Part shown: positions 8,511 through 44,521 of the stretch, piece after piece | How positions within the stretch are numbered: position 1 is the stretch's first letter | How the letters are laid out: each line of letters begins with the position of its first letter | Assembly (NCBI GenBank): GCA_030647205.1 | Contig: JAUSJO010000002.1 | Coordinates: 11,261 to 75,260, forward strand | Length of the DNA: 64,000 nucleotides | DNA from: a bacterium | GTDB lineage: Bacteria; Patescibacteriota; CPR2; UBA1875; JAJYID01 | Direction of reading: 5' to 3' | Notes under the pieces: model-generated | The model's database searches: none | What the model saw: the letters and a program-made list of their open reading frames with translations, nothing else | What the model was told of the DNA's origin: nothing | Program-made: the position numbers and the translations under genes

Positions 8511-8539
8511 CTCTCTCCTTTATTCTAGATTTTTCAGTC

Positions 8540-10139: not shown

Positions 10140-10425
10140 TGTGGAAAAGGGCGGTATTTCTGTGGAATACCTCTGTAAAGAAAGCGCATATAAAGAGTCT
10201 TATAAACAACCACTAGAATTTATTTAAACAGTTAAAACAACCTATACCCAAGAAACACTTAAAGATACTCAACCAAAAACACAAGCAAAAACCATGATTT
10301 TAAGATTAAAATAAGCGTTATGAACAGTTTACACAGGTATTACTACAACAAACATTAAGTATTAATAAAGAAAAACAATTATAATTAAGGGAGGGGTTGG
10401 GGATTAGTTAAAAAGGAGTAAAGAT
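10140..10425. promoter_or_regulatory. putative oriC (DnaA boxes plus AT-rich unwinding region) between dnaA and dnaN
   Basis: TGTGGAAAA at ~10140 (identical 9-mer to the one upstream of dnaA). TGTGGAATA at ~10161. Followed by a ~230-bp stretch of >75% AT. Confidence 0.45.
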
Positions 10426-13480: not shown

Positions 13481-13501
13481 TTTTTCTCCTAGATTTAGAT
13501 A

Positions 13502-14158: not shown

Positions 14159-14167
14159 AGTTAAGAC

Positions 14168-14869: not shown

Positions 14870-14889
14870 AATTTTCTAATCCTAACCTG

Positions 14890-15603: not shown

Positions 15604-15688
15604 TTGTTTAGTCTTGGTTTAATATCCCTCTCAGATATAATAGCATATGTATTTTTAATAATAAATTCGGTATAGGTAGGCGGCCCTT

Positions 15689-16294: not shown

Positions 16295-16305
16295 ATATTA
16301 AAACC

Positions 16306-19821: not shown

Positions 19822-19852
19822 ATTTTAAATCCTTAAGCTTACAGCTCTTATT

Positions 19853-20593: not shown

Positions 20594-20649
20594 GTTTTGT
20601 ATAAATTTAACTAGTAGTGCTTAAATTTTCTTTCATTCTCAGTCCGGGT

Positions 20650-21321: not shown

Positions 21322-21359
21322 ATTTCTTTATGTTCATTATTCTCAGTTTGCATCTCTTA

Positions 21360-23162
21360 TTATGTCAATAGTGTTGCTTTCCTGTGAAGCTCTGCTGCCT
21401 CAGCGCGAGTAGTACCGCTATGTCCATTTCTATTGTTTGCCATATCCAGCATCTGCTCTCTTAGGTCTGAGGCTTGCTGTGCCTTTTTGGAGTCAGCCTT
21501 AAGACTTGTAAGCATTGAGTCTGTGATACTTGTGCCCCCAATGAGCTGATGCTTTAAAAGTCCAGGGTTGCTCCCTCCGTCACCTTTTATATCAGGCGTA
21601 ATCATATCTCCAACTGAGTGGCCAATTGTGGAAAAATCTTTACTGCGCAGCTGGTGTAGATTTGACTTCTTCAGGGCCTCGTCGTAGTTACCAGTTTGCA
21701 TGATGTGAGCTTTGACACTGTGATCAGTGGCTGCCTCGTAGTCCAGGGCGCCCTCTTTCACAAGGTGGTCGATAGCGGTTCCCTTGTTGCCTCCTCGTTT
21801 TTCCCAATCTTTCAGGCTTTTCTGTACATCGTCGCCGAGTTTGGAGCGGTCCAGGGTTCCTCGCGCATACTTACGCCTGTCGCTATTTGACATCCCGAGA
21901 TTACCAAACTTGTCTGCCAGGTCTCTGTTTAGGTTGATTTGATCCTGCGCGCTCTCACCAATTATTCTACCGCCAACTCCGGGTATTCGCCCAAAACTTT
22001 TTCTCATTTGTCCACCAAGCTTTTCCTGTTTTCTGGCAGCAATATTGCTACTTCTTTGTTTCGCCCAACCCTGCCAAGCTTTTGGATTTACAGTTGCCGG
22101 CAAGAGATTCACGCCGGCTTTTCCTGTTTTCTTTGCCATACTGCTAATGTGTGAGCCTACTGCGCCCAAGAAACCAAGCGGCAGGAAGACTGCCATGGGG
22201 ATGGATACTGCTCCGAGTAGGAATGCATCAAGTGCCTGGATTACCTCTTCGCCCTTTCCTTCGTCGTCATGAATGGCTTGAGCAAATGGAGTTTTGGCCT
22301 CTTCACTTGTAAAAATTGAGTTGGATGCCGCCATAAAACCAAGACCAATTGATAAGACAAAAAAGCATATGGGTAAGAAGATGGTCCACTTGATAAACAT
22401 GTCCCAAAACTTTTTAAATAATGGCTGAGTGGCCGGAAGGGCAATCAGCCCAAATGCAAGCGGGGAGATAACGATAAGCATTCCTAGTATAAAGCCTCTG
22501 ACGAAGAGTATTGCTGCCAAAAGCAAGAGCATCAAGAATGTCAAGACTGCGATAAGGAAAATGCCCACAGACACGGGCAGGCTAGGGACATCTCCTTTAG
22601 ACATTGCTAAGCCGATATTGTTCATGTAAATATCAAATTGATCTAAATTTTTTTTCGCTAGTGTTTTTGTTAGGGCTACACTTAAGTTAATAATGGAGCT
22701 ACAGATGAACTTACTGAAATAGACGAAAAATGCGGTCATGACAAGTTTTGGTATGAGTCTTTGAAAACCCCACTCTTCTATCTTAAATTTCATCATATTC
22801 ATAAAGGCGATAGCAATGACGGCAAGACCAAAGAGATCTAGTGTGGCTGCCTTGGTGTTTTGCCACTCGGTGGTGATTGCGGGGTTTGACACCAGATTCA
22901 TAGATGCATTAGCCCCTGATACCACAAGGTGGTAGCCCAAGCTTATAAGGTCGTAACCCGTTGCATAAAAAAACTCAGATATTCTCTCAAGTATCCACTT
23001 TATCCAGTTGGCTGGGTCTATAAAATCGAGTGATTGCGCATATGTGGGATGAGGTGTTAAGGTAAGGACCAGAGAAAAAATAAAAAGCGGGACCAAAAAC
23101 ATTAAAACATGTTTCGGTTTCGCTTCTTTAGAACTGAATATCTTTGATAAAAACACCCTCAT
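21360..23162 (-). CDS. VirB6/TrbL-like polytopic membrane protein with long hydrophilic C-terminal extension
   Basis: Signal/TM N-terminus, 5-6 TMs in the middle, ~250-aa charged C-terminus. Gene order pilin-VirB6-VirB3-VirB4. Confidence 0.45.
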   Translation of the reverse strand: MRVFLSKIFSSKEAKPKHVLMFLVPLFIFSLVLTLTPHPTYAQSLDFIDPANWIKWILERISEFFYATGYDLISLGYHLVVSGANASMNLVSNPAITTEWQNTKAATLDLFGLAVIAIAFMNMMKFKIEEWGFQRLIPKLVMTAFFVYFSKFICSSIINLSVALTKTLAKKNLDQFDIYMNNIGLAMSKGDVPSLPVSVGIFLIAVLTFLMLLLLAAILFVRGFILGMLIVISPLAFGLIALPATQPLFKKFWDMFIKWTIFLPICFFVLSIGLGFMAASNSIFTSEEAKTPFAQAIHDDEGKGEEVIQALDAFLLGAVSIPMAVFLPLGFLGAVGSHISSMAKKTGKAGVNLLPATVNPKAWQGWAKQRSSNIAARKQEKLGGQMRKSFGRIPGVGGRIIGESAQDQINLNRDLADKFGNLGMSNSDRRKYARGTLDRSKLGDDVQKSLKDWEKRGGNKGTAIDHLVKEGALDYEAATDHSVKAHIMQTGNYDEALKKSNLHQLRSKDFSTIGHSVGDMITPDIKGDGGSNPGLLKHQLIGGTSITDSMLTSLKADSKKAQQASDLREQMLDMANNRNGHSGTTRAEAAELHRKATLLT

Positions 23163-23217
23163 ACTGAAATTATAGCATGAGGGTGTTTCTAAACAATAGT
23201 TTTATTCTAAGATTAGT

Positions 23218-23562
23218 CTATTTGTTGAGAACGCCTAGAACAACATTGATCAGGACTAAGGACAGAACGATTATCGCCAAGCCAACAAGTGCGAAAATGA
23301 TAGTTTTCTTTGCCCCTTCCGTCTGAGTCGGGTTGCCGGCAGAAACGATATATCTGATACCGCCGATAACAAGGAAAACAACCGCTACAAGTCCTGCGAT
23401 ACCGAGCAGCCAGTTTCCAATGGCCTTAATAGTGTCTGATAAGCAAGTTTCGCTTGAACAGTCCTTGATCGTGACGTCTACGTTTTGTACATCGGCGAAA
23501 GCACCGGCTGGCAGAAGAACATGAGCTATAAAGACCGACGTTGTTAAAATTTTCTTTTTCAT
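23218..23562 (-). CDS. VirB2/TrbC-like pilin (paralog 1, minimal form)
   Basis: Signal peptide, short Cys-containing segment, then two hydrophobic helices split by a short loop: LVAVVFLVIGGIRYIVSAGNPTQTEGAKKTIIFALVGLAIIVL. Confidence 0.5.
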   Translation of the reverse strand: MKKKILTTSVFIAHVLLPAGAFADVQNVDVTIKDCSSETCLSDTIKAIGNWLLGIAGLVAVVFLVIGGIRYIVSAGNPTQTEGAKKTIIFALVGLAIIVLSLVLINVVLGVLNK

Positions 23563-23690
23563 TTTTTTTGCTCCTTTTTTAAGTAGGATTTTATTTTTAT
23601 AAATTTATTCTAATGCTTTTTTATTTTGTTTGCAAGCTATTTAATATATTACCACATTGGACACTAAATTTAACAAACTTGTCCACTTAT

Positions 23691-24233
23691 TTATTTAAAA
23701 AGACCGGCTAAAAGCGAAATTACTAAGTATGACGATATGATTATTATAAGGCCTATGATGGAGCCGACAATAGTTTTCTTTGCCAGCCCGGTTGCAGTCG
23801 GGTTCCCTGCAGATACTATATACATAACCCCGCCGATAAGAACCATAATCAAAAGTATGATGCCGGCAAACCCCATGACTTTATTTAAGGCGCTTTTTAT
23901 AACCTTTCCAAGCTCATCTTTGCCCGGATCATCCTTTCCTTCCTTGAAAACACTGTCGTTGCTACGGTCACCAGTGGTGCCCGTCGTCCCCCCGGTTGTG
24001 CTGGTACTATTGCTTGCTGCGCTGCCCGGGGCCGTTGATGTGCCTGTGCTTGTGTTTTCTACAGAACCTTGCGCTTGGGCGTCGCCTTGATATCTTTGTT
24101 CGATCGCGTGAGTGTGCGGATTCAAGCCAGTAGCTGCCTGGAAAAAACTAATTGCAAGAAAAACAAATGCAGTTAGGCAGGGGATAAGCAAAAATTCTTT
24201 TTGGAAATGTCTAAATTTTCTCATTTTTTGCAT
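23691..24233 (-). CDS. VirB2-like pilin paralog 2 with Gly/Thr/Ser-rich N-terminal extension
   Basis: N-terminal TM, GTSTAPGSAASNSTSTTGGTTGTTG low-complexity region, C-terminal hairpin IGGVMYIVSAGNPTATGLAKKTIVGSIIGLIIII. Confidence 0.45.
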   Translation of the reverse strand: MQKMRKFRHFQKEFLLIPCLTAFVFLAISFFQAATGLNPHTHAIEQRYQGDAQAQGSVENTSTGTSTAPGSAASNSTSTTGGTTGTTGDRSNDSVFKEGKDDPGKDELGKVIKSALNKVMGFAGIILLIMVLIGGVMYIVSAGNPTATGLAKKTIVGSIIGLIIIISSYLVISLLAGLFK

Positions 24234-24238
24234 TTAAT

Positions 24239-25384
24239 TTAATAAGGAGAAGCTCCTAAGAGGGCTAGAAATATATTCATGCCAAGTATCAGAGTAATGC
24301 CGATAAGCGCGTACTTAATATGTTCTTTAGCAGTTGATATTTGTCCAGGGTTACCGGCGGCTGTGGCATAAAGTACCCCGCCGAATATAATCTTTAGCAT
24401 CGCAAGGCCGCCAAAGACGATGCTAGCGATACTCATAACGTCTCTAGCAAAAGTCTTAACATCCCCGTCTCCGCAGAATGACTTGTCTTTATTTACACAT
24501 TTCATATTATTGACCAGACCTGATAAGGTGTCGTTGCCAGGAAGCCAGCTTCCTAGCTCTAGCTTATTCATAAACTGTTGTATTTCTTTCTGATAAGAAT
24601 CATTTACATTATCGGCTGTTGCTCCACAGTTTTGCAGGTAGGTAGTAGCGTCTGCTATTTGTGTTGATTGTTTACATGCATTAAGGTCACATCCTTGATG
24701 GCGGGAACTACCTATTTCGCATAACCTGTTAATAGTTCCTCTGACATCAACTATTGGTACTCTACTGGTTTGGGTCCAAGCACCTATCCATTCGTCTGTT
24801 GCGCAAGGGCGGTCGCCATGGGCCGGGATATATGTTCTGCATGCGCCTTGTCCGTCATTGTGTATGCCTTCCTGTTGGCATTGCCCTTCGCTAATTGTTC
24901 CCGCACTCATGAAAGCAGCGTACCAGCAGTTGTCCAGACAGTTATCACACTGGCTTCTGTAGTTACTCTCTGCTGTTGTTACCCAAAACTGACTGTAGTA
25001 GTCTTCGAAAGCAAGACAGTAATCACCTCCGGCGCAATCTTCCGCACTTGTCTCCCCGCCTCCAAGGGAGTAACACCTAAAAACACATTCGTCATTCCAC
25101 TCTCCGGTCATACATTCTCCATTGGAAAACAAATCGGTACCCCCTACACCACTGTCGCCTTCCGGGCACGTTTTGGTCATGCCCAGTGTATTTTTTGCCC
25201 ACTCATCTATGCAAGCTCTATAGTCACTAGCGGAATTCCAAAACCTACTACAATCGTGTCCAGGAGTACTGGCATGGGCGATCAAAGAGTTTTGTGTGGG
25301 CCCACCGATAAAGGAGATAATATTAAAAAGAACAAATACCGCAACAAATATTGTTATTAAAGAAAGTAGCTTTCTAACCCTCAT
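24239..25384 (-). CDS. VirB2-like pilin paralog 3 fused to a ~300-aa Cys-rich extracellular domain
   Basis: Start taken at the internal ATG (MRVRKLLSLITIFVAVFV). More than 30 Cys in the ectodomain. C-terminal IFGGVLYATAAGNPGQISTAKEHIKYALIGITLILG hairpin. Confidence 0.45.
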   Translation of the reverse strand: MRVRKLLSLITIFVAVFVLFNIISFIGGPTQNSLIAHASTPGHDCSRFWNSASDYRACIDEWAKNTLGMTKTCPEGDSGVGGTDLFSNGECMTGEWNDECVFRCYSLGGGETSAEDCAGGDYCLAFEDYYSQFWVTTAESNYRSQCDNCLDNCWYAAFMSAGTISEGQCQQEGIHNDGQGACRTYIPAHGDRPCATDEWIGAWTQTSRVPIVDVRGTINRLCEIGSSRHQGCDLNACKQSTQIADATTYLQNCGATADNVNDSYQKEIQQFMNKLELGSWLPGNDTLSGLVNNMKCVNKDKSFCGDGDVKTFARDVMSIASIVFGGLAMLKIIFGGVLYATAAGNPGQISTAKEHIKYALIGITLILGMNIFLALLGASPY

Positions 25385-25470
25385 GCCTTTATTATAGTTA
25401 TGTTCTGGGAAGCGTGTAAAGAAGAAAATTATTTTTAGAGCCACTCTTGGGGTGCAAAGAGGTTCAAAAA

Positions 25471-25530
25471 GAAAAAGGCCCGCGGTAGTTTAGAAAACAA
25501 ATGTTTTCAAACTAAGCGGGCCTTTGGGGC
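25471..25530. terminator. bidirectional hairpin terminator
   Basis: AAAAAGGCCCGC...GCGGGCCTTT. GC stem flanked by A-run and T-run, between two minus-strand units. Confidence 0.5.
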
Positions 25531-28320: not shown

Positions 28321-29937
28321 CTACTCTTTAATAACTTTCAGAACCTCAACAATGTTGACTATTCCTTCGATTGCCTTTAGGAAACCATCTTGCTCCATAG
28401 TCAGCATGCCGTCTTTTATGGCGATTTCCTTGAGTTCGTGTAAAGTATTGTTTTCTACAACTGCTTTTTGAAAAGCAGGCGAGACACTAAGGAACTCATA
28501 AATACCGAGACGGCCTTTGTATCCAATATTATTACACTCTTTGCATCCTATACCCTGGAAGAACTCAGGTGTTTTTTCCGGTTTGTGTTCGATAGGGAGA
28601 GAGTCAATGATCTTGTTTATCTCGACCATTTCGTGATCGTTTGGCTTGTATTCCTCGATACAATGCGGGCAAATTCTTCGTACCAGACGCTGAGCGATAA
28701 TGATATTTACAGCGTCAAGAAAGGATGAAGCGTCATTCACAAGACCGATAATTCTCGGAACAGCTGTGACAGCGTCATTTGCATGCAAAGTTGTTATGAG
28801 AAGATGACCGGTGATTGCTGCCTGAAGTGCAGTTTTTGCAGTTTCGGCGTCACGTATTTCACCAAGCATTATGATGTCCGGGTCTTCACGAAGGACGGCC
28901 TTTAGTCTATCAGCGAAACCTTCCCCTTCGTTAATCTGGGACTGAGTAGCGCCGGGAAGAGTGTACTCTATAGGATCTTCTAGGGTGATAAGCTTGATTT
29001 CCGGTGCATTTAATTTGTTTAAAATAGAATAAATACTGGTTGTTTTACCAGAACCGGTTGGACCGACGACGAGGATCATCCCGTGTGGGCGAATAAGTGC
29101 AGAGTCCAGTATTGGGCGCTGAATATCACGGACGCCTAGTTTGTCCATATCCAGTAGCTCTGCCTGAACGTTGAAAAGACGGATAACGATATCGTCGCCG
29201 TAAAGTGAAGGCATAACTTCTATTCTTACACTAAGCTCGTTGTCAGAAAACTTAACCTTGAAACGGCCGTTTTGCGGATAGTTTACGTTAAGTTTCAAGC
29301 CCGAACGCAACTCTACTTGCGATCGAACGAACTTGTATTGCTCGTGGCTCAAAATGGTTGCCAAATGCAGGACACCATCAAGTCGAAACCTCAGTTTCAC
29401 GTCATCGTTTGCCGGTTCAATATGAATGTCCGATGCGCCCATTGCGAAAGCCTCTATAATAATAAACTTTAGAAGCTCTTGTATAGGTGCAGTCTTAATC
29501 TTCTCTTGAAACTCATCAAAAGATATCTCGGAAATGTCCATCTCAGAAACATCTACCTCTCCCGGTGTTTCTGCCGGCGGAAGCTGGACAATGTCTCTTA
29601 AGAGTTCCTCGTTATCCTTGAAGCTTTCAGTAGATATAATAGCAACAGACGTCTTGGGATAGGTTTTTTTGTATTTCTCCTTAAATTCATTGATCTTTTC
29701 AGACTTAGGATTAGGAGAAACAATAACGAGAGTATCTTGATCCATTTTTAATGGGATTACAGAGCACTCAAAAAAGTCCTTGTTATTAAAATTTTCAAGA
29801 ATATCTTTTTCCAGGCGTGCAGCACGTAAGTCAAAATAAGGTATGCCGAGCCTTTCAGCCTCCTCTTGGATTTTTTCTTCAAGGGCATTCCTGTTGACAA
29901 GCTTTGCCTTGGCTACGACATCTAAAGTATCACTCAT
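28321..29937 (-). CDS. pilB: type IV pilus / type II secretion assembly ATPase
   Basis: GspE_N-like N-domain. Walker A VVGPTGSGKTTS. His and Asp boxes. Tetracysteine motif CPHC...CKEC. Start taken at the MSDTLD ATG. Confidence 0.85.
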   Translation of the reverse strand: MSDTLDVVAKAKLVNRNALEEKIQEEAERLGIPYFDLRAARLEKDILENFNNKDFFECSVIPLKMDQDTLVIVSPNPKSEKINEFKEKYKKTYPKTSVAIISTESFKDNEELLRDIVQLPPAETPGEVDVSEMDISEISFDEFQEKIKTAPIQELLKFIIIEAFAMGASDIHIEPANDDVKLRFRLDGVLHLATILSHEQYKFVRSQVELRSGLKLNVNYPQNGRFKVKFSDNELSVRIEVMPSLYGDDIVIRLFNVQAELLDMDKLGVRDIQRPILDSALIRPHGMILVVGPTGSGKTTSIYSILNKLNAPEIKLITLEDPIEYTLPGATQSQINEGEGFADRLKAVLREDPDIIMLGEIRDAETAKTALQAAITGHLLITTLHANDAVTAVPRIIGLVNDASSFLDAVNIIIAQRLVRRICPHCIEEYKPNDHEMVEINKIIDSLPIEHKPEKTPEFFQGIGCKECNNIGYKGRLGIYEFLSVSPAFQKAVVENNTLHELKEIAIKDGMLTMEQDGFLKAIEGIVNIVEVLKVIKE

Positions 29938-29961
29938 AGCTTGTATGATAGCATAATGTGA

Positions 29962-29990
29962 TTGAAAAAACACGAAATTTTAGCTATAAT
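29962..29990 (+). promoter_or_regulatory. sigma70-type promoter for the tandem tRNA-Ser genes
   Basis: TTGAAA-17 nt-TATAAT about 25 nt upstream of tRNA position 1. Confidence 0.5.
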
Positions 29991-30014: not shown

Positions 30015-30104
30015 GGTGAGGTGGCCGAGTGGTTGAAGGCAGCAGTCTTGAAAACTGCCGTGCCGGCAACGGTACCGTGGGTTCGAATCCCACCCTCACC
30101 GCCA
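30015..30104 (+). tRNA. tRNA-Ser (anticodon TGA)
   Basis: GGTGAGG acceptor, D-arm GCC/GGC, anticodon loop CTTGAAA, long variable arm, GGTTCGAATCC T-loop, G73, encoded CCA. 90 nt. Confidence 0.85.
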
Positions 30105-30122
30105 TGATACAATTCAAATAGT

Positions 30123-30215
30123 GGAGAGGTACCCAAGTGGCTCAAGGGGCGGGTTTGCTAAACCTGTAGGTTGGGGTAACCCGGCGCGGGGGTTCGAATC
30201 CCCCCCTCTCCGCCA
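30123..30215 (+). tRNA. tRNA-Ser (anticodon GCT)
   Basis: GGAGAGG acceptor, anticodon loop TTGCTAA, long variable arm, T-loop TTCGAAT, encoded CCA. 93 nt. Confidence 0.85.
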
Positions 30216-32910: not shown

Positions 32911-33000
32911 GGAGAGGTCGCATAGTGGTCTAGTGCGCCGCCTTGGAAAGGCGGTATATCTGAAAGGGTATCGAGGGTTCGAATCCCTCCCTCTCCGCCA
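32911..33000 (+). tRNA. tRNA-Ser (anticodon GGA)
   Basis: GGAGAGG acceptor, anticodon stem CCGCC/GGCGG with loop TTGGAAA, long variable arm, encoded CCA. Confidence 0.85.
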
Positions 33001-33129
33001 AGAAAAGGAGCTCGATTTTTTGAGGTTCTTTTTTTGTTCGTAGCGCCTATTTTTACTTCACAAAGAGCATTTTTTAATGTATAATAACCCTTACGTAACT
33101 TGACAATCCGGGACTTTAAGGAGGTGACG

Positions 33130-34239
33130 ATGGAACCATGTGTGCCAACACAAGCTGTTGTCGAACTGACAAAACAGTGCAATCTCTGCTGTCAGCATTG
33201 CGGTTCGGGCTGTACTTCCAAGGCAGATCCGAAAGAAATGAATGTTGAGGAGTGGAAGGATTGTATCGATCAGTTAGCTGCACTGGGAACCGAGAAAGTT
33301 ATTTTCTCCGGTGGTGAGCCCACGCTAAAAGATCAGTTTGACGAGCTAATAGTTCATGTAGGAAAACGGGGGCTTAAGTACGCCTTTATTACAAATGGCT
33401 ATGAACTTCCCGATACGATTGCCTCGACCATAAGTAAGCACAGACCATATGCTGTTGGTGTAAGCATCGACGGTATGGAAGGGGTTCATAATCAGATAAG
33501 ACGCAAAAAGGATAGTTGGTCTCGAGCCCTGGAAACTATCAGGGGAGTTAAAAACCTCGGGATCCAGGTCTGCGTTGTTACTACTGTCAGCAGGCACAAT
33601 TTGTCTGAGCTGGACTTGCTTGCGGATTTTCTTTCAAAAGAAGTAGATTCGTGGCAGATTCAGTTGGCAACTCCTTTCGGGAGGATGGCCAAACGAGAAG
33701 ACGCCTTACTTAGTGAAGATGAGTTTACTGCGCTTTGTCGTAGAATAATCATTTACAGACATGTCTACCCCGAACTTAATATACAAGCGGCTGACTGCTT
33801 TGGGATGGCGCCGGCCGGCACAGTCCGGTCTGGTTTCTGGGGTGGTTGTAGTGCAGGGGTCACATCGCTTGGAATTGATGCTTGTGGTTCGATACTCCCC
33901 TGTCTTTCTTTACAGTCAGGTGCAACCTGCGGGAATCTTCGTGAGAGGAGTCTGGAGGAGATATGGAAGAACTCTGAGGGCTTTGCACTTAACCGCAGAT
34001 TTCATGAGAAAGACGCGAACGGGGGAAAGTGTGAAGGATGCGAGGAGCTAGATCTATGTAGGGGCGGCTGTGCTAGCCAATCATATGCCTACTACGGCAG
34101 GTTCCATAGTTCGCCATTTTGTTATGAAAGGACGTTTCATCTCAAACATTCGGAAGGAGGTGTTCAAGATGCAGAATATTCTCAGTGTGATCCTCAAAGA
34201 CATGGAACAGCACATTGTTCCAGTAAAGCTGCCGGGTGA
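33130..34239 (+). CDS. radical SAM enzyme with C-terminal SPASM/twitch domain
   Basis: GGAGGTGA RBS then ATG at 33130. CNLCCQHC (CxxxCxxC). GGEPTL. C-terminal auxiliary-cluster Cys motifs (CGSILPC, CxxC...C...GGC). ~50% GC. Confidence 0.75.
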   Translation: MEPCVPTQAVVELTKQCNLCCQHCGSGCTSKADPKEMNVEEWKDCIDQLAALGTEKVIFSGGEPTLKDQFDELIVHVGKRGLKYAFITNGYELPDTIASTISKHRPYAVGVSIDGMEGVHNQIRRKKDSWSRALETIRGVKNLGIQVCVVTTVSRHNLSELDLLADFLSKEVDSWQIQLATPFGRMAKREDALLSEDEFTALCRRIIIYRHVYPELNIQAADCFGMAPAGTVRSGFWGGCSAGVTSLGIDACGSILPCLSLQSGATCGNLRERSLEEIWKNSEGFALNRRFHEKDANGGKCEGCEELDLCRGGCASQSYAYYGRFHSSPFCYERTFHLKHSEGGVQDAEYSQCDPQRHGTAHCSSKAAG

Positions 34240-34657
34240 CAAGAAGCTGGTTAAGCGGGCACTTGTTGAGGTTGGCGCCAAAGCAAGCATGATTGAGATC
34301 TTGGCTTCTACTTATGGAGAGACCTTTGGCGGTCTTCACCGGAAGCTGGCCGAGAAGCTCTATGGCGAAGCCGAGATCGATCTGGTTTTCGGGGTTTTCT
34401 ACGAGGAAGACAAGATGGTCTTTGCTTTTTGTCGGGATGTTGCTGACTACAACAAAAAAACCAAGAGAGTCGAATGTAGAGATCTCGACGAGATTCTGGT
34501 TGAAAAAGTCACTCCGATCGAGGGTATTCCTGTCAGGCCGCCGATTAAGTTTCCGGGAGCGGACATGCCATCCAAGCCGCCAGGCTCTATGCCTGACGTG
34601 GTGGTGCGTTACGCTCTCGTTGAAAAACCGGAGCCGGAGGAGGCGCAAGCGTCTTAG
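34169..34657 (+). CDS. hypothetical protein co-transcribed with the radical SAM/SPASM enzyme
   Basis: AAGGAGGTG RBS. 162 aa, Pro-rich C-terminus. Overlaps the rSAM 3' end in another frame. No recognisable domain. Confidence 0.45.
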   Translation: MQNILSVILKDMEQHIVPVKLPGDKKLVKRALVEVGAKASMIEILASTYGETFGGLHRKLAEKLYGEAEIDLVFGVFYEEDKMVFAFCRDVADYNKKTKRVECRDLDEILVEKVTPIEGIPVRPPIKFPGADMPSKPPGSMPDVVVRYALVEKPEPEEAQAS

Positions 34658-34672: not shown

Positions 34673-34702
34673 AGCGGGCTTACACAATAAGCCCGCTTTT
34701 TC
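34673..34702 (+). terminator. rho-independent terminator of the rSAM operon
   Basis: AGCGGGCTT-acacaat-AAGCCCGCT then TTTTT. Confidence 0.6.
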
Positions 34703-34715: not shown

Positions 34716-34753
34716 AAAAGAAAAAAGCCCCAGTTCGGTTGAACTGGGGCTTT
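34716..34753. terminator. bidirectional terminator serving the convergent minus-strand operon
   Basis: A-run, GCCCCAGTTC-ggtt-GAACTGGGGC, then TTT. Overlaps the stop of the PurA-like gene. Confidence 0.6.
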
Positions 34754-36176
34754 ATGTATCCAGAAGGTGCAGTTTATCGTCGGATTTATTTCCGACAGAA
34801 GCGATTGCTACAGGTATTCCGAGGCCCTTATCGGACTCAAGGAACTTAAGGAATGCCTTAGCATTTGGATGAAGAGTATTTTTTTGCCTTGCTTGCGGCC
34901 ATCCCTCGAACTCTTGAAAGTCCAGAGGCTTGCACTCAAGAAGCATTTTTGTACGCTCTTCACTTTGCTTTTGTGTGATTCCGGGGAGGTGTTTAATACC
35001 GGTTATTTCCACTCGGCCATTACTGACGCAACAACTGAAGTAATGGTTGAGCTTGTCTTTTTCCTCGCCGCAATATTCATAAGAGCGACAGACCTTGAGG
35101 TTGTTCTGCCCGTCGAAACGATCAAGGCAAGTGACCGAAAGGAAAACGGGCTCACCGGATGATTTGACCGAATAACGTGATGTAATGAGGTCAAAGTAAC
35201 CGTAGCGGAAGCTGTCTTGCCAACGGTTTTGTTGGTTGTGTTCTCCAGCTTCAAGGTGTGGTAAGTTCTCGGAAGTGACAAAGGGTCCCGCTCCATGTCT
35301 TGTAGCAAAGCAGCGGGTGACACCAATGTTTACGACCGAGTCTAGGCCTCCAAGCGACTCGATTATCTTGTTAGCGGTGCTCGGTAGTACTCTCGTTTTG
35401 GTTACGTATGGAGTAAAACCGATAATCGGGTCAAGGAGGACTCCTTGGGCTCCTTCTAAAACGATCGTCTTATCTTTTGCCAATCGGTCAAAGATAATCT
35501 CGTCTGACTGAAAGGCTCCGTTAAGCGCTCCTGCGAACTCAAGATATTCCCGAAACAACTTGACCGGTGAAGTGCCTCTCAAGAACGTTTGGAATATTGA
35601 GATGACCTCTTCTGATTGGCTGGTTTCAAGGATGACTTGCGCGACCGCGAGCTTTTGCCTGTAATGTTCTTGGATCTTGGTCCAAAGAGCAGATGAAGAG
35701 GAGAGATCGCGGATAGTTAGAGATGAATCGGGCTGTTCGGTTCTATCGAATGATGCTTGCCCTACTCCCATTCCGACACTTCCGTGCTTCAGAGATCCCC
35801 GAGCTGCCTCAAGCATTTGACCAATCATGGCATGCCAAGGCGTCACTATGTAGCAGTTGGGGGAGATGGTAATTCTTGAGAGCGCATCTGAAACGCCGAT
35901 CCTTTGTAGCTGTTCGGCCTCGATTAAGAGGTTTGAGGGCTTGACTAGCATTCCTTCTGTCAGATGTGTTTTGACTCCAGGGACAAGTGTTCCTGATCCA
36001 AACTGGCTAAAGCAATGGAAGTGGCCGTTTTCTACGACATGATGAGCTGCTTGCGGCCCGCCATTATAACGGATAACAGCAGTTGCATCATATTTTTTTA
36101 CCAGCGACTCTACAGTAGTTCCTTTGCCCTCATCTCCATAACTAAGACCAAAGATGTTGTATACTCTGGCGGTCAT
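34752..36176 (-). CDS. adenylosuccinate synthetase (PurA)-family GTP-dependent ligase, divergent
   Basis: AAGGAG RBS then ATG (MTARVYNIFGLSYGDEGKGTTVE). NGGPQAAHHV in place of NGGNNAGHT. C-terminal GW...PPNAKAFLKFLE...GIPVAIASVGNKSD matches the PurA C-terminus. ~50% GC. Confidence 0.7.
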   Translation of the reverse strand: MTARVYNIFGLSYGDEGKGTTVESLVKKYDATAVIRYNGGPQAAHHVVENGHFHCFSQFGSGTLVPGVKTHLTEGMLVKPSNLLIEAEQLQRIGVSDALSRITISPNCYIVTPWHAMIGQMLEAARGSLKHGSVGMGVGQASFDRTEQPDSSLTIRDLSSSSALWTKIQEHYRQKLAVAQVILETSQSEEVISIFQTFLRGTSPVKLFREYLEFAGALNGAFQSDEIIFDRLAKDKTIVLEGAQGVLLDPIIGFTPYVTKTRVLPSTANKIIESLGGLDSVVNIGVTRCFATRHGAGPFVTSENLPHLEAGEHNQQNRWQDSFRYGYFDLITSRYSVKSSGEPVFLSVTCLDRFDGQNNLKVCRSYEYCGEEKDKLNHYFSCCVSNGRVEITGIKHLPGITQKQSEERTKMLLECKPLDFQEFEGWPQARQKNTLHPNAKAFLKFLESDKGLGIPVAIASVGNKSDDKLHLLDT

Positions 36177-37077
36177 GGTGGCTCCTTGACTCGTAGTGCT
36201 CGATAAGGCTGATAGCTTCACCAAAAGCATAACGGTCCCTGCAGATCCAGTCGCTTAGCATGAATCTGCTGTAGCCCATTAGATGGAGAAGGTGAAAATC
36301 CGAAATGTCGCTAAGCGAGACTTCTTCGGAACTTTCGAGAGACGTGAGGATTCGGGAAGCTGCATAAGCAAACGGGTCGTACTGGATAATTGTTGCTTCG
36401 GCAGCGATGATATCCTCTTTTTGATTGCCCAAGTTGATATAGAGGTCGTCGCGAGCGGCCATAAGACGAACGTCATTGACGAACGGACCGTACTCTTTTA
36501 CAACAAACTCAATGCCCCGCTTGGACTCGATCTTGGCCACGATTTTCGCATCAGGATCAAGGGCCACAACTTCGCTGATGTCAGATGTTTTTTCAACGAA
36601 CGACAACATGTAGTTATGGACGCCTAACTTTTTAGCGGCCTCAATATACTGGTAGTCGCTCTCGGTCAGATATCCTTCAATCACGAGTGACGGATCGAGA
36701 ATATTGACTGCTTCACCGGCGCCAACAGGTCTTTTGGGCTCGTTCTGAAGTATCAGTTTGTTGCCGTCCACTATATCTACAATCTTGGACTTATGGTCCT
36801 TGAAGTAGAGAGTGGTTGGCAAGTTAACAGATATCTTGTGACTGAGCTCCACTGTCGTAAAGGTTGGGTCGGCCCATTTTGTGACTCGAAGCTGTCTTGA
36901 TTTTAAGTCAATCCAGAGCGGCTTTTCTCCGCAGAGGTCGACTAAGTCTTTCAAAATTTCTTCTTTATCTTTGCCTCCCGTAGGAGTGACCGTATTGAAC
37001 CGCAACGCTTCTATGGTCGGGTGAGACACGACCATCTTCCGGAAACTGATATAGGGTGAAAGGGTTGCGAGTAACAT
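36142..37077 (-). CDS. pyruvate-kinase-like / HpcH-CitE-like TIM-barrel enzyme
   Basis: GAAGGGAG RBS. IVAKIESKRGIEFV...MAARDDLYINLG...EDIIAAEATII aligns with the PK barrel (KIEnxeG...ARGDLGIEIP). Barrel only, 311 aa. Confidence 0.5.
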   Translation of the reverse strand: MLLATLSPYISFRKMVVSHPTIEALRFNTVTPTGGKDKEEILKDLVDLCGEKPLWIDLKSRQLRVTKWADPTFTTVELSHKISVNLPTTLYFKDHKSKIVDIVDGNKLILQNEPKRPVGAGEAVNILDPSLVIEGYLTESDYQYIEAAKKLGVHNYMLSFVEKTSDISEVVALDPDAKIVAKIESKRGIEFVVKEYGPFVNDVRLMAARDDLYINLGNQKEDIIAAEATIIQYDPFAYAASRILTSLESSEEVSLSDISDFHLLHLMGYSRFMLSDWICRDRYAFGEAISLIEHYESRSHHDRQSIQHLWS

Positions 37078-37139
37078 CGCGTGCTCCCTTCGTTTTGAGG
37101 CAGGAAGCGGGCTTATGCACCCGCTTCCTGCCGATTGGT

Positions 37140-38102
37140 TTACAGCCGTTTTGTTTTTGTTTTCCGATTAGCACCAGGCTCATCAGGCAGCTGGTCGGTA
37201 GTGTCTACCTTGACCAGCGCGGTTCCGACAGCGCTAAGCGTTTCTGAGACCTCAGATATCCGCTTTGCATCCTGTCCTCTGTTTTTCATGTCGACTAGAT
37301 AGCCGGCAAGATCCCGAGAACCGCTTGTCATGGCGATTGCTCCCAGCATGACATCTACGACCGCCTTCGGATCTTGCATGATCAGTACATGGTCAGATCC
37401 TAAGAGGTCTTCCCATTGGGCGACAATCCGCTTATTTGTAGAGGAGTTGGCGTCTCCGCTATAGTGTTTGTGAATTAGGAAGACGTTTCCCTTGAACTTC
37501 TTCTTGAGCGCCGTAAAGACTTTCTTGGTGCTCACATTCTGCTTGATGGATTTCCCGAAAAGAGCACTTACATGGTTGGTCTTGACTTCTTCGTATGCTC
37601 CCTCATCGGCGAGGAAAAAGAAGTAAGGGGCTGAGTCTTCAGGAATCTTACAGAAGTGGGCATAGTAATATGCCATTAGCTCATAGGTTTCTCTGGCGCC
37701 ACCGCCACCGCCACCCTCGAGCCATATTTTGGCAAGGTCTGCATCGAGTGCAGTGCCTTCGGCGAAATCGCAAACCTGAATCGGGCAATCGTCGCCGTTA
37801 GCATCACCATTAGCGGCAAACGATATAGACAGATCGGGCAGATAGTTCTGCTGGACAATCTGGCCGAAGAACATCGGCATCTTGTCATAGATTGTGCGAG
37901 CCCAGTTACCCATAGATCCCGTTACATCAAGGTCGATGACAACCGGGTTTTTGTGGGTGCACTCGATGTGTCGACCCTTGGGCATTAGCGCGCTATCAGC
38001 GTAGTCTGAACCGACTGCGCTAGCAGAATCATCACTGAAACTGAATCCTCCGCTGCTTTTACTGCTTCGGTAAACATCACGATCATAACTTCCTCCGCCC
38101 AT
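37140..38102 (-). CDS. cytoplasmic von Willebrand factor A (vWA) domain protein
   Basis: AAGGAG RBS. MIDAS-like DLDVTGSMGN. GGGGGG loop. No signal peptide. Confidence 0.7.
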   Translation of the reverse strand: MGGGSYDRDVYRSSKSSGGFSFSDDSASAVGSDYADSALMPKGRHIECTHKNPVVIDLDVTGSMGNWARTIYDKMPMFFGQIVQQNYLPDLSISFAANGDANGDDCPIQVCDFAEGTALDADLAKIWLEGGGGGGARETYELMAYYYAHFCKIPEDSAPYFFFLADEGAYEEVKTNHVSALFGKSIKQNVSTKKVFTALKKKFKGNVFLIHKHYSGDANSSTNKRIVAQWEDLLGSDHVLIMQDPKAVVDVMLGAIAMTSGSRDLAGYLVDMKNRGQDAKRISEVSETLSAVGTALVKVDTTDQLPDEPGANRKTKTKRL

Positions 38103-38116
38103 GACAGGCTCCTTTC

Positions 38117-39217
38117 CTAGATGTGAAGCGCCTTGAAGCGCTCTTTGCCGAATACCTCCGTACGGAGGTCTACCAGTTCTTCGTGCAGTTCCCAGGCATC
38201 TCGTGGCCGCGTTTTGTAATCCGGGTCGATGAGACGTTCCAGGAACTGCGCTATCCGGTGGTCAACATGAGCAGGGATTGCTCCAGTATCTACATTGCCG
38301 CCAACCAGGTAAATCATGCACTTGCCGAGAGCGTAAATGTCGGCCGTTGGAAGTGGCTGAACTTTCTTTGCAACCTCGGGCGCGCTGTATCCGGGAGTGA
38401 CGCACTTGATATAGTCTCCATCTTTCGGATTTGAAACCGAAAACGTGAAGTCGGTCAAGAATGCGTTGTGGTCCGAGGGCCGGGCGATGATATTCCCCGG
38501 TTCGATATTTTCGTGGATTACTAGGTTTGAGTGTGCGAATCCAAGGACGCTCAGTTGGCGCTCGAAAATCCAGCACATATGCTCTGCAGGTACCCCGTCT
38601 TTATACATGGGGTTTTCCCGGAGCGCATATAAATCATAGCCGTCTATGTAGCGGAGAACTGATGCATCCTTTCCTTCTGTAGTTGTAAAGCTCTCCACCA
38701 AGGTTGGCATTGACTTATGACGTACGCTTCGAAGTATCTGTTGTTCATTTCGGATCAGGTCGTTGTCGTCTGTGTCGCTTACAACCTTGATGACAACTCG
38801 TTCAGTTGATCCATCTTCGGTATAGTCGGCAAGAAAAACATCAGCCAACGATCCGGTAGCAATTTTAGAGTATATGTCATACTCACGAGTTGCCGTCTTG
38901 ATCGTAGTTCTTGGAGTACCGGTTGTCCGAAACGACTTTCTGTCCCAGTACACACCGGTGGTGATGCTTGTTAGGGCATCAACGTAGAACTTGTTAACAA
39001 GAGAGGTAGACTCAGTAGATATATGAACCACTCTTGCTTCCTCGTTTTGGTACCTATCCGGATGACACATCTGAAGAAATTCTTTACGGAGTTTCCTTAG
39101 TGCATCTTTGGCCTCATCTTTATCTTTGTCTTCCGACAAAGGTCCGAAAAGGTCAATCGGATGTTGGCAATCTACGAGGCGTTCATAGAAGCGTTCAAGC
39201 TCGTTCACTGAAAGCAT
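38117..39217 (-). CDS. Hanks-type Ser/Thr protein kinase with N-terminal J-domain-like (HPD) segment
   Basis: N-terminus ...ALRKLRKEFLQMCHPDRY... (J-domain helix II/HPD-like). Kinase subdomains GSLADVF, VIKVV, HENIEPGNI (catalytic loop), TDFTFS (DFG-like), YSAPE. Confidence 0.65.
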   Translation of the reverse strand: MLSVNELERFYERLVDCQHPIDLFGPLSEDKDKDEAKDALRKLRKEFLQMCHPDRYQNEEARVVHISTESTSLVNKFYVDALTSITTGVYWDRKSFRTTGTPRTTIKTATREYDIYSKIATGSLADVFLADYTEDGSTERVVIKVVSDTDDNDLIRNEQQILRSVRHKSMPTLVESFTTTEGKDASVLRYIDGYDLYALRENPMYKDGVPAEHMCWIFERQLSVLGFAHSNLVIHENIEPGNIIARPSDHNAFLTDFTFSVSNPKDGDYIKCVTPGYSAPEVAKKVQPLPTADIYALGKCMIYLVGGNVDTGAIPAHVDHRIAQFLERLIDPDYKTRPRDAWELHEELVDLRTEVFGKERFKALHI

Positions 39218-39232
39218 TTTTTCACCTCACTC

Positions 39233-39892
39233 TCATGTTTTGATGATAAGATCTGCGAACTTTCTTTGGGGTTCGATGAACTCTTGATGTGCCGGCTCAA
39301 TTTGATCCCAAAAAACATCGGTTATTATGTCGGGAGAAATATTAAACATCTCCGCATCCCTGTTGATCCTTCTTTTTAGTCTCAACAGGCCCGAGGCATC
39401 AAGAAATACATATCGGCTAGGCACACCTGTTGACCGAACGATGTCGATAGCAAAAAGACCATCAACAATAATCACCTCTGATGGATTTTTGCTTACCGTT
39501 TCTTTGTGAGATCTTTTATTTCTAGTCAGATCATAGACGGGACATTCGACAGTTTTGTTCGAAACAAGTGCGAGCAAGTGTTCTTTGATCTCTGCTTCCT
39601 GATAAGAACCGGGAGAATCGAACAATGGCAAACCGCCGCTTCCGACCGGAAGTTGCGGATCACTAATGTCGCGAAAATAGTCATCGAGCATAAGTTTTGT
39701 CTGTGAGATGTTAAGTGCCGTTAAGGCCCCTACCAGTTTTTCACAGAAATAACTTTTGCCTGAGCAACTTCCTCCGGCAACAGCAACAACTAGATTTATG
39801 TTTCTTGCGATTCTTTTCGATCTGCCCTTTAATATTGTGTCTGCGATAGCATGCAGACCGTCATTGAACTCATATACAGTTGGTCCGCACAC
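39233..39892 (-). CDS. uridine kinase/phosphoribulokinase-family P-loop nucleoside kinase
   Basis: AGGAGGG RBS then GTG start. Walker A VAGGSCSGKS. LDDYF. RLKRRINRDAE (Udk-like). Confidence 0.65.
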   Translation of the reverse strand: MCGPTVYEFNDGLHAIADTILKGRSKRIARNINLVVAVAGGSCSGKSYFCEKLVGALTALNISQTKLMLDDYFRDISDPQLPVGSGGLPLFDSPGSYQEAEIKEHLLALVSNKTVECPVYDLTRNKRSHKETVSKNPSEVIIVDGLFAIDIVRSTGVPSRYVFLDASGLLRLKRRINRDAEMFNISPDIITDVFWDQIEPAHQEFIEPQRKFADLIIKT

Positions 39893-40113
39893 TGGTTTTC
39901 CCTCCTAAGATTTGACAACAAATTTATAGACTAAAAATTGTGCTGCTTTGTCAAGGGACTCAACTTAACCTCCTTTCGAAAAGAAAGTAGTCTGCCTTGG
40001 TAAGTGGACGTTAATTATAACAGGAAATATAAGGATAGGCAACCATTTAATCCTTAGGTTAAAACAAATTATTTAATCTTTTAGTTTCTTTTCAAAGGAA
40101 TATAATTAGAACG

Positions 40114-40635
40114 ATGATAAAAACACTCAAAGAAATTGATGATTTTAGGAAGAAAGGCCTCCGGCCGCAAGTGGCTGGCTGTTTTTTAAATAACAGAAAG
40201 GTTCTACTCTGTTACAAAAAAGAACATGATCTATGGCAGCTTCCCCAAGGTGGGATTAGAAATCTTGAGCTGATAGAAGATGCATTTCTCCGGGAGATGA
40301 CGGAGGAGTTGGGCCAAAGTTTTGTCAGGCAGTTTGGTGCTGACTTGAAGCCGGTTACTGAAGCCAAGGTTGAGTTTCCGCTGAAAAAACATGCGGCTAG
40401 AAACCTGGAAACAGACGCGGGAGAACCTATAACAATGAGGGGGAAAAAGTACTTCTTTTTGGCTGTTTTATCCTCAAGCGTAGAGACTCGGCCCGAAAAA
40501 ACAGAGTTTGATGATTGCAAGTGGTCTTCATATGAAGAGGCGATGAAGTCTGCCGAAAAAATTTACCAAAAAGGCAAGAAGCGTATCACGACCAAGGCGC
40601 TAAAGGAGCTAAAGTCTCTAGGGCTTATTACATAA
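40114..40635 (+). CDS. NUDIX hydrolase
   Basis: Nudix box GGIRNLELIEDAFLREMTEELG (Gx5Ex7REUxEExGU). Confidence 0.85.
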   Translation: MIKTLKEIDDFRKKGLRPQVAGCFLNNRKVLLCYKKEHDLWQLPQGGIRNLELIEDAFLREMTEELGQSFVRQFGADLKPVTEAKVEFPLKKHAARNLETDAGEPITMRGKKYFFLAVLSSSVETRPEKTEFDDCKWSSYEEAMKSAEKIYQKGKKRITTKALKELKSLGLIT

Positions 40636-41363: not shown

Positions 41364-41439
41364 GCGCCCGTAGCTCAGGGGATAGAGCGTATGGTTGCGG
41401 TCCATAAGGCCGGAGGTTCGAATCCTCCCGGGCGCACCA
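41364..41439 (+). tRNA. tRNA-Arg (anticodon GCG as read)
   Basis: GCGCCCG acceptor, D-arm GCTCAGGGGATAGAGC, anticodon stem TATGG/CCATA with loop TTGCGGT, GGTTCGAATCC, A73, encoded CCA. Backbone closely resembles bacterial tRNA-Arg(ACG). Confidence 0.75.
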
Positions 41440-44429: not shown

Positions 44430-44521
44430 GGAAGGGTGCCGGAGTGGTTGAACGGGGCAGTCTCGAAAACTGTTGTCCTGCTTACGCGGGACCGAGAGTT
44501 CGAATCTCTCCCCTTCCGCCA
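44430..44521 (+). tRNA. tRNA-Ser (anticodon CGA)
   Basis: GGAAGGG acceptor, anticodon stem GCAGT/ACTGT with loop CTCGAAA, long variable arm, GAGAGTTCGAATCTCTC, G73, encoded CCA. Confidence 0.85.

Follow-up and report, generated by a model that had tools for sequence, protein, structure and literature searches.

A widespread gene cassette that combines a divergent PurA-family ligase and a mini pyruvate kinase with a vWA-like protein and a J-domain protein

We analysed a stretch of 64,000 nucleotides (nt) from a bacterium of the Patescibacteriota lineage CPR2 (contig JAUSJO010000002.1 of assembly GCA_030647205.1, positions 11,261 to 75,260), here called the window, whose own numbering is used below, and focused on the operon at 34752-39892. 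This operon is a member of a widespread, apparently undescribed cassette that occurs in many bacterial phyla and in three phage lineages, and in which a divergent ligase of the PurA family and a shortened pyruvate kinase stand beside a protein of the von Willebrand factor A (vWA) type and a J-domain protein. A nucleotide-centred and probably conflict-related role is a reasonable reading of this gene set. An earlier note on the same DNA, made from the letters alone, had described five tightly packed minus-strand genes with Shine-Dalgarno (SD) sequences. This was borne out, as the listing of open reading frames (ORFs) gave five ORFs on the minus strand, with short gaps or overlaps between them, and an AGGAG-type SD was found 5' of all five starts. 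The genes, with the names used in this text, are the following.

39233..39892, minus strand: Udk-like P-loop nucleoside kinase, 219 amino acids, GTG start, AGGAGG SD
38117..39217, minus strand: J-domain plus degenerate protein-kinase-fold protein (J-protein), 366 amino acids
37140..38102, minus strand: vWA-like protein with a metal-ion-dependent adhesion site (MIDAS), 320 amino acids
36142..37077, minus strand: mini pyruvate kinase (PK-like), 311 amino acids
34752..36176, minus strand: divergent PurA-family ligase (PurA-like), 474 amino acids from the ATG at 36176

For the PurA-like gene, an AAGGAG SD precedes the ATG at 36176 and not the in-frame upstream ATG at 36230 (492 amino acids), and gene calls in two near-identical contigs, L001 and L099, give the same 474-residue product; the start at 36176 is therefore the more likely one.

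Distribution of the cassette in bacteria and phages

The same five genes were found in locus L002, in a different genomic context and with 50-69% protein identity by tblastn. Smaller sets were also recovered: L004 carries the J-protein, vWA-like, PK-like and PurA-like genes, L005 (Eremiobacterota) the J-protein, vWA-like and PurA-like genes, and L003 the vWA-like gene alone. L006 (Nealsonbacteria) has an AAA+ ATPase gene paired with a vWA-like gene and, in addition, another vWA paralog with PK-like and PurA-like genes behind it; in L006 and L007 (also Nealsonbacteria), a PRK/Udk-CYTH fusion and a NUDIX gene (3238-4401, minus strand) lie immediately upstream of the AAA+ and vWA-like pair. A scan of reference genomes with a nine-sequence vWA alignment returned nine loci and added Leptospiraceae, Clostridia, Haliangiales/Myxococcales (Myxococcota) and Spirochaetes; the trio of vWA-like, PK-like and PurA-like genes, with or without the J-protein, occurs in these groups as well as in Eremiobacterota and Patescibacteria.

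An independent set of metagenome loci anchored on the PK-like gene comprised 80 loci, 74 of them non-redundant, and 27 had at least 4.5 kb on both sides. Among these 27 fully flanked loci, the vWA-like gene was present in 25, the PurA-like gene in 22, the J-protein gene in 16 and the Udk-like gene in 8, and all five genes in 8. The vWA-like gene, the most constant component of the cassette, adjoined the PK-like gene in 93% of them, and the Udk-like gene is a facultative member (about 30%), linked in both gene orders. These two orders are circular permutations of one another, Udk/J/vWA/PK/PurA as in the window and PK/PurA/Udk/J/vWA, and they point to selection for co-expression, being hard to explain otherwise. 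The view in the earlier note that this is no plain salvage operon was thus upheld by the gene-neighbourhood search, which finds the set across phyla, in phages and in two gene orders.

Other genes recur beside the cassette. A classical AAA+ ATPase of the Cdc48/PAN/FtsH type (PF00004) was present in 18 loci, lying upstream of the vWA-like gene in many that have no J-protein, and in 12 of its loci it was preceded by an unknown protein of about 225 amino acids; it commonly comes with a second vWA paralog (15 loci overall). A NadE-NadD fusion, which joins glutamine-dependent NAD synthetase to nicotinate-nucleotide adenylyltransferase, was found in 15 loci; in L081 it lies inside the cassette, flanked by the PurA-like and PK-like genes and overlapping the start of the latter. 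Further recurrent neighbours were NUDIX genes (8 loci), Prs-family enzymes (6) and nucleotidyltransferases of the Pol-beta type (6). In L010 (Leptospiraceae; 6408-9800), an unknown 515-residue protein and a RelE/HigB-like/HTH toxin-antitoxin pair lie between the J-protein and vWA-like genes.

The cassette is also carried by phages. About 200 records of Bixzunavirus mycobacteriophages (Bxz1-type, cluster C) contain vWA-like and PurA-like genes. In Gizmo, the one record inspected, gp267-270 are a ser/thr kinase, a hypothetical protein that is vWA-like, a small ORF and 'PurA', and the kinase has an HPD-containing J-domain with Ala at the position of the catalytic Asp. An uncultured phage of 485 kb (LR745208.1) carries J-protein, vWA-like and PK-like genes, with no PurA-like gene within 7 kb. 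The third lineage is represented by L018 (IMGVR_UViG_3300037067_020703; 243,788 bp), with vWA-like, PK-like and PurA-like genes at 8001-11105. The in-frame stop codons of its vWA-like and PurA-like genes coincide with conserved Gln positions (FGQIxQ, PIQ and EGAQG), which indicates that the genes are native to a jumbo phage in which a stop codon is recoded to Gln. The L018 locus also encodes a CCA-adding/poly(A) polymerase-HD protein, a calcineurin-like phosphoesterase and a LAGLIDADG protein.

Features of the five proteins

The identification of the last gene as a divergent PurA-family ligase held up, in that its product matches PF00709 (1.5e-63) and carries GDEGKG and NGGPQAAHH. The match to curated purA models is far below their cut-offs (184.9 bits against 402 for NF002223; 173 against 395.6 for TIGR00184), and the PurZ model NF038379 is matched over the N-terminal 150 amino acids only, with 36.9 bits against a cut-off of 300. 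We aligned 19 cassette-linked members of this clade with E. coli PurA (the sequence is identical to PDB 1kjx_A), whose numbering is used here. With PurA they share the PF00709 fold, the GDEGKG P-loop and the equivalents of Asp13, Lys16, His41, Gln224, Thr239, Arg305, Asp333 and Ser414, whereas Lys18 is changed to Thr, Ser or Ala, Asn38 to Gln, Ser240 to Lys and Val273 to a new invariant His, and Arg143 and Lys331 are lost. In E. coli PurA, Asp13, His41 and Gln224 are catalytic, Asp333 and Ser414 are guanine contacts, and Asn38 and Arg143 contact the phosphate of inosine monophosphate (IMP); the clade has thus lost several IMP-phosphate contacts. The aspartate loop GATTGRRRR (298-305) is replaced by a clade motif, HN..N.WQG.FR, in phage copies as well; the whole signature is also present in Gizmo gp270 and in the jumbo-phage copy. 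In the window protein the loop reads QNRWQDSFR, and of the canonical loop residues tested (T300, T301, R303 and R305) the equivalent of R305 is the sole one kept.

Neither the canonical aspartate loop nor a PurB/fumarate-lyase signature was found in 1.06 Mb of cassette loci. The PurA-like enzyme looks active but re-targeted, and from the pattern of kept and lost residues it is predicted to be a GTP-dependent activator of a substrate of the 6-oxopurine type, with a nucleophile other than aspartate. If that nucleophile is a non-aspartate amine, a lyase step would be unneeded. Phage PurA-like genes (e.g. NC_021346.1 gp270) are labelled '2-aminooxy adenylosuccinate synthetase' (PHROG) or 'PurA-like adenylosuccinate synthetase'; neither label fits the residue pattern, because the aspartate loop is absent. 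The enzyme resembles PurZ in being a phage-borne, re-targeted PurA paralog, but its bit score sets it apart and its neighbours are vWA-like, PK-like and J-protein genes, not DpoZ, DatZ or MazZ-type genes. In the 2026 PurZ paper, other phage PF00709 proteins appear only as the PurA outgroup.

The barrel protein, for which the earlier note had left the choice between a pyruvate kinase and an HpcH-like fold, proved to be of the former kind. Its AlphaFold2 model (mean predicted local distance difference test score, pLDDT, 93.8) was compared with the PDB by Foldseek, and the top 50 matches were all pyruvate kinases (E about 1e-16, template-modelling (TM) scores of 0.70-0.74); an HpcH/CitE identity was rejected on this ground. 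In profile searches it scored 33.9 bits for PF00224 (cut-off 30) and 41.2 bits for NF004491 (cut-off 432). The motifs RFN, DLKxRQLR, KIES and MAARDDL are invariant in the family and supply R26, N28, D57, K59, R64, K182, E184 and D211, which are the equivalents of pyruvate kinase R73/N75, D113/K115/R120, K270/E272 and D296, the contacts of phosphoenolpyruvate (PEP), Mg and nucleotide. The protein thus shares with pyruvate kinase the A-domain barrel, the B-domain lid and all contact motifs, but it lacks the C-terminal allosteric domain: the 311 residues stop after the barrel, with no PK_C match, family members are about 300 amino acids long, and their setting is a mobile cassette rather than glycolysis. 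Judging from the model, it is a genuine phosphotransferase of the pyruvate-kinase type in mini form, predicted to use PEP to phosphorylate nucleoside diphosphates (NDPs).

The proposed Udk-like kinase was confirmed by PF00485 (1.3e-16; 61.5 bits, cut-off 22) and by its top PDB matches, uridine kinase and UCK2 (E about 4e-19), with the P-loop, DDY(F/Y), PVYD and RRxxRD aligned; for NF004018 it reached 113 bits, under the 180-bit equivalog cut-off. These motifs also align with those of the T. thermophilus Udk (3w8r), in which comparison the base-contacting His seems, by eye, to be Asn.

The second gene had been called a Hanks-type kinase with a J-like N-terminus. The J-domain and the kinase fold were both recovered, but the kinase site is degenerate. 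The J-domain spans about residues 20-95 (nt 38933-39160) and the kinase-like domain about residues 107-355 (nt 38153-38899), and the protein stops directly after the latter, with no Zn-ribbon or OB tail. Pfam, searched at E ≤ 10 with the single N-terminal sequence, gave no DnaJ match, and Pfam was equally silent on the vWA domain, so both domains were established by profile searches against the PDB and by structure. A profile of the N-termini matched HscB (1.2e-5) and DnaJ (3.6e-5), nearly all of the top 40 or so matches being J-domains, and HPD was invariant in nine aligned orthologs; on this evidence the N-terminus is a genuine J-domain. The kinase fold is supported by PF00069 (3.1e-19). In the window protein, the catalytic loop reads HENIEPGN in place of HRDxKPxN, DFG is changed to DFT and the Gly-loop (ATGSLADV) is degenerate; in the comparison with PknB, the alignment of these motifs was unambiguous. 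Among 29 non-redundant full-length homologs, the beta3-Lys and the alphaC-Glu are kept in 29, while at the position of the catalytic Asp 24 have Asn and 2 have Ser, and Cys, Ala (Gizmo gp267) and Asp occur once each. The last of these is the huge-phage protein, which has a textbook J-domain, an intact DFG and the catalytic Asp. The idea of an 'analog-sensitive' enlarged ATP pocket was dropped, since the gatekeeper aligns, by eye, to an ordinary Leu.

The vWA fold and the MIDAS proposed for the third gene were confirmed by structure, although Pfam at E ≤ 10 gave nothing relevant and the family has no Pfam model. An exhaustive profile search (E ≤ 1e-10) placed 1,586 representatives at 50% identity in this family. 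The window protein begins with a disordered segment, MGGGxYDRDV, and a Ser-rich region; the vWA domain, a C-terminal subdomain made of helices and a basic tail ending in KRL complete it. The N-terminus, MGG[GSP]xYDRDV, is invariant across the family, yet disordered, and leads into a Ser-rich region; the MIDAS residues are conserved, and the family has a Gly-rich loop, LEGxGGG. The tail is of the basic [KR][KR][LIT] type in 21 of 23 loci with a J-protein but in only 1 of 11 loci with an AAA+ partner, 5 of these 11 ending in Wx[LIV] instead (Fisher's exact p = 5e-6, phylogeny not corrected for). Because the tail co-varies with the partner, J-protein or AAA+, these sequence data suggest that it docks on that partner.

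Of ten longer family members tested, seven are fused to a U-box, as are several eukaryotic entries, and one longer member is a fusion to NUDIX. The eukaryotic entries are labelled Trimastix, 'Spiro4' and 'Hemi2', and many have a C-terminal U-box E3 domain and keep MGGGxYDRDV. Eukaryotic or fused entries are P0061, P0074-P0077, P0083-P0092, P0361, P0378 and others, and the prokaryote-type P0373 is the NUDIX fusion. A mid-domain insertion of about 160-190 amino acids (total 475-511) is present in the vWA-like proteins of L012, L013-L016, L040-L044, L064, L068, L073 and L083, and has no Pfam match.

Expression signals, composition and surroundings of the operon

Further features of the window that bear on the operon are listed here.

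39923..39954, minus strand: candidate promoter, TTGACA at 39954-39949, 20 nt, TATAAA at 39928-39923
37099..37132: GC-rich hairpin within the operon, in the 62 nt that separate the vWA-like gene from the PK-like gene, 13 pairs, 10 of them G-C
34753-34724, minus strand: intrinsic-terminator-like hairpin closing the operon, 13-bp stem, 4-nt loop, T-run
34673-34697, plus strand: second hairpin, for the convergent gene, separate from the operon terminator
30015-30215, 32911-33000 (tRNA-Ser GGA), 41364-41439 and 44430-44521: tRNA genes

The TTGACA promoter proposed upstream by the earlier note was sustained in part. The hexamer is present, but the TATAAA lies 20 nt away, and a consensus promoter scan of the region gave chance-level counts (9 found, 8.6 expected) and did not call the TTGACA/TATAAA pair. 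Upstream of the L002 cassette, TTGACA-N17-TATATA occurs at the position aligned with the TTGACA of the window, and given this aligned element a promoter at 39923-39954 is plausible only. A 10-codon mini-ORF at 39921-39980 (minus strand; AAGGAGG-N5-TTG AGT CCC TTG ACA AAG CAG CAC AAT TTT TAG) includes this same TTGACA and is kept in L001; as it is not conserved in L002, the idea of a conserved, SD-preceded mini-ORF was dropped. A riboswitch or structured leader was likewise abandoned, the 221-nt leader matching no Rfam family and showing no significant structure (z = -0.5). The hairpin at 37099-37132 is possibly an intra-operon RNA element. At the other end, a single bidirectional terminator had been claimed; the two separate hairpins listed above were found instead.

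The cassette has a GC content of 47.8%, the window 43.0% and the flanks 40-42%. The contrast proposed in the earlier note was therefore real for the cassette, whose GC content and tetranucleotide deviation are among the highest 3.4% and 1.7%, respectively, of window segments of the same size, but overstated for the flanks, which had been put at 30-38%. The atypical composition and the differing genomic contexts support the view that the cassette is mobile. Elsewhere the window, with genes for DnaA (8790-10139), ValRS, PilB and a VirB4-like ATPase, is bacterial chromosome. A run of minus-strand genes at 13000-25500 includes the VirB4-like conjugal-transfer ATPase (18004-19821; above the NCBIfam cut-off), and a PilB/GspE-type ATPase is encoded at 28321-29973; these may represent a conjugative or type IV element.

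Genes for four different tRNA-Ser (TGA, GCT, GGA and CGA) and for tRNA-Arg(GCG) are spread over a 15-kb region that surrounds the cassette. A tRNA-flanked island was rejected, as there are no att-like direct repeats. A radical SAM/SPASM gene and an ORF of 151-195 amino acids (33100-34657, plus strand; GC 48.9%) converge on the cassette and adjoin tRNA-Ser(GGA). The best NCBIfam matches of the former are peptide maturases, all far below cut-off, and PADLOC gave weak pVip matches. Both genes were rejected as cassette parts, being co-located with it only in the near-identical L001. The same was concluded for the NUDIX gene at 40114-40635, a divergent gene that recurs only in L001 and has 24% identity to the vWA-fused NUDIX, with no specific kinship.

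Possible role, alternatives and implications

The cassette has points in common with several described systems. Like the MoxR-vWA ternary, or chaperone-centred, conflict systems (PMC7159879), it places a cytoplasmic, co-chaperone-like MIDAS-vWA protein by an ATP-driven chaperone component, with further conserved genes and a patchy spread over many phyla, and systems related to the MoxR-vWA ternary ones use Hsp70/DnaJ (PMC7159879; Kaur, Burroughs, Iyer and Aravind, 2020). It differs in its ATPase, which would be Hsp70 reached through the J-domain, or a Cdc48-type AAA+ that matches PF00004 and not MoxR (no AAA+ partner gene was found in the window), in its distinct vWA family, and in its constant partners, a PurA-like enzyme and a mini pyruvate kinase, rather than the catalogued effectors; the text of PMC7159879 makes no mention of adenylosuccinate synthetase. 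The resemblance is functional only.

The TerY-P triad, to which the earlier note had likened the locus, consists of a TerY-type vWA protein, a PP2C phosphatase and a serine/threonine kinase with a C-terminal Zn-ribbon/OB fold (PMC11090510). The cassette likewise has a vWA/MIDAS protein beside a protein-kinase-fold protein, and for TerY-P, too, a role in stress or phage conflict has been proposed. The cassette kinase, however, has an N-terminal J-domain, no C-terminal Zn-ribbon/OB fold and no catalytic Asp; no PP2C gene was found in the cassette or in related loci, and the vWA protein matches no PADLOC model, TerY-type ones included. Membership of TerY-P was rejected on these grounds. With the phage NAD+ pathways NARP1-3, the cassette has in common that phages carry nucleotide-anabolic modules, and Prs, NadE-NadD and NUDIX genes occur near cassettes, but the defining NARP enzymes (Adps+Namat, NampT+Nmnat, PnuC+NadR-like) are absent from the cassette core and from the window cassette. 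The NARP papers found do not mention adenylosuccinate, and the components listed in the abstract on NARP3 (PMC13464706) include nothing PurA-, PK- or vWA-like. In the literature searched, whose coverage did not extend to the 2012 Ter-system work (PMC4104200), this gene combination was not described. We place the cassette among systems of the vWA-plus-chaperone kind, with an apparently undescribed enzymatic core.

The catalytic activities, the docking and the biological role discussed below are what we infer from these comparisons. Our preferred reading, held tentatively and at somewhat less than even confidence, is that of a chaperone-coupled nucleotide-conversion module that would manipulate pools of adenine nucleotides, GTP or NAD in virus-host conflict. 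With GTP as the donor, the PurA-like enzyme would phosphorylate an IMP-like nucleotide at its 6-oxo group and would then add a non-aspartate amine. The mini pyruvate kinase would draw on PEP to convert NDPs to nucleoside triphosphates (NTPs), regenerating GTP for the ligase and/or raising its product to the triphosphate. In cassettes that have it, the Udk-like kinase would supply the nucleoside input. The vWA-like protein would be a MIDAS-dependent adaptor that joins the enzymes, a protein target or a nucleotide ligand to an ATP-driven remodeler, namely host Hsp70 through the J-domain here and the Cdc48-type AAA+ unfoldase in sister cassettes, the eukaryotic counterpart being a U-box E3. This adaptor/chaperone arm may assemble, activate or gate the enzymes, or act on a protein target. 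Recruitment of a chaperone or unfoldase, rather than phosphorylation, is proposed because the catalytic Asp is lost and AAA+ genes are found in loci without the J-protein. Control by a kinase, as the earlier note had suggested, is doubtful for the same reasons: the Asp is replaced in 28 of 29 homologs, and the Cdc48-type AAA+ occurs in many loci that have no J-protein.

Several observations weigh against the conversion module. The rebuilding of nucleotide pools offers no obvious reason for a vWA/chaperone arm, and PADLOC, run on the cassette, gave no defence model beyond generic kinase models. A minority of homologs (L058, L069 and L100) have a canonical kinase active site, and phosphorylation may matter in these versions. 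Across phages the vWA-like gene is constant while the PurA-like or the PK-like gene is sometimes missing; moreover, L003 has the vWA-like protein by itself, and eukaryotes have it without these enzymes. The real core may therefore be the adaptor, with the enzymes as auxiliaries. The association with NAD genes could be partly incidental, as NAD and nucleotide genes cluster in small genomes anyway. The window itself contains no NAD-linked accessory genes, and its NUDIX gene is not specifically related to the cassette-linked NUDIX domains.

Among the alternatives, an anti-phage defence of the abortive-infection type comes next, though we consider it unlikely. Here a non-canonical nucleotide would be the signal or toxin, the vWA protein and its chaperone partner would set the threshold, as proposed for MoxR-vWA ternary systems, and the phage copies would be decoys or superinfection-exclusion genes. 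The patchy spread over many phyla, the atypical composition, the varied contexts and the likeness to vWA/chaperone conflict systems would all agree with such a role; the re-targeted ligase suggests a new product, the NUDIX neighbours and the NUDIX fusion could serve as off-switches, and the L010 locus has a toxin-antitoxin-like insertion. Against it stand the lack of a recurrent recognisable effector (nuclease, NADase or pore-former) in about 100 neighbourhoods, the same restriction of PADLOC matches to generic kinase models, and the absence of recognised defence genes among the recurrent neighbour families, which were clustered and profiled by family representatives only. Moreover, three unrelated lytic or huge phage lineages carry the cassette natively, and the associated enzymes that form NAD, phosphoribosyl pyrophosphate (PRPP) and NTPs are anabolic. 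We give still less weight to an activase, in which, by analogy, the vWA-like protein together with Hsp70 (via the J-protein) or AAA+ would assemble or reactivate the PurA-like and/or PK-like enzyme; the cassette would in that case amount to a specialised metabolic enzyme together with its own chaperone. MoxR-vWA activases are established, with CbbQ/CbbO for Rubisco, NorQ/NorD and BchI/BchD as analogues; a vWA/MIDAS and ATPase pair adjoins the putative client enzymes, the vWA-like and PK-like genes being nearly always neighbours in fully flanked loci, and the vWA tail is partner-specific. However, the vWA-like protein occurs without either enzyme (L003) and fused to a U-box in eukaryotes, the ATPase is a classical AAA and not MoxR, PurA and PK folds are not known to require activases, and phage carriage is left unexplained.

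New chemistry is a comparable long shot: the PurA-like enzyme might produce a novel purine nucleotide, N6-substituted or otherwise aminated, that would be converted to its triphosphate by the PK-like enzyme and read by the catalytically degenerate kinase domain or by the MIDAS, or it might attach a purine nucleotide directly to an amine of a protein, for instance at the invariant N-terminal glycine of the vWA-like adaptor. As an explanation of the whole cassette, protein-nucleotide conjugation of this second kind, using that glycine after Met removal, for example, and with NUDIX as the reversing activity, seems very improbable. It would account for an N-terminus that is invariant yet disordered, for the loss of the aspartate loop in favour of a conserved Trp-containing motif, for the vWA-NUDIX fusion and for the tight linkage of vWA-like and PurA-like genes. 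It is purely inferential, though; no PurA-family enzyme is known to modify proteins, and the N-terminus is equally conserved without a PurA-like neighbour (L003, L100 and the eukaryotic U-box fusions). Housekeeping salvage, with a bona fide PurA, a glycolytic pyruvate kinase, a uridine kinase and chance vWA/kinase neighbours, is near refuted. It would fit the source annotations 'adenylosuccinate synthetase' and 'pyruvate kinase', the passing of Pfam gathering scores and the dependence of Patescibacteria on salvage. Yet the aspartate loop is replaced, the equivalog scores (185 against 402 for PurA; 41 against 432 for PK) are far too low, the pyruvate kinase lacks its C-domain, there is no PurB nearby, and the linkage with the vWA-like and J-protein genes is kept across phyla, phages and gene orders. 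The cassette is moreover present in Myxococcota, Leptospiraceae and mycobacteriophages, whose hosts have a canonical purA.

The database names 'adenylosuccinate synthetase', 'pyruvate kinase', '2-aminooxy adenylosuccinate synthetase' and 'ser/thr kinase' are probably misleading for cassette genes. If the predicted re-targeting holds, PurA and PurZ would be joined by a third functional branch of their family, one that is equipped with a PEP-driven nucleotide kinase of its own and moves among bacteria and no fewer than three lineages of phages. Should either case of new chemistry be true, bacteria and phages would share a novel signal or protein modification that is based on nucleotides and tied to remodelling by Hsp70/AAA+, and eukaryotes would have an offshoot of it linked to the U-box. 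The approximately 200 Bxz1-type phages with the triad of J-protein, vWA-like and PurA-like genes are a cultured, genetically tractable system for testing these ideas. More broadly, the pattern of the vWA-like family, whose partner is a J-protein, an AAA+ unfoldase or a U-box, would imply a general adaptor that links ligands to remodelling in prokaryotes and eukaryotes.

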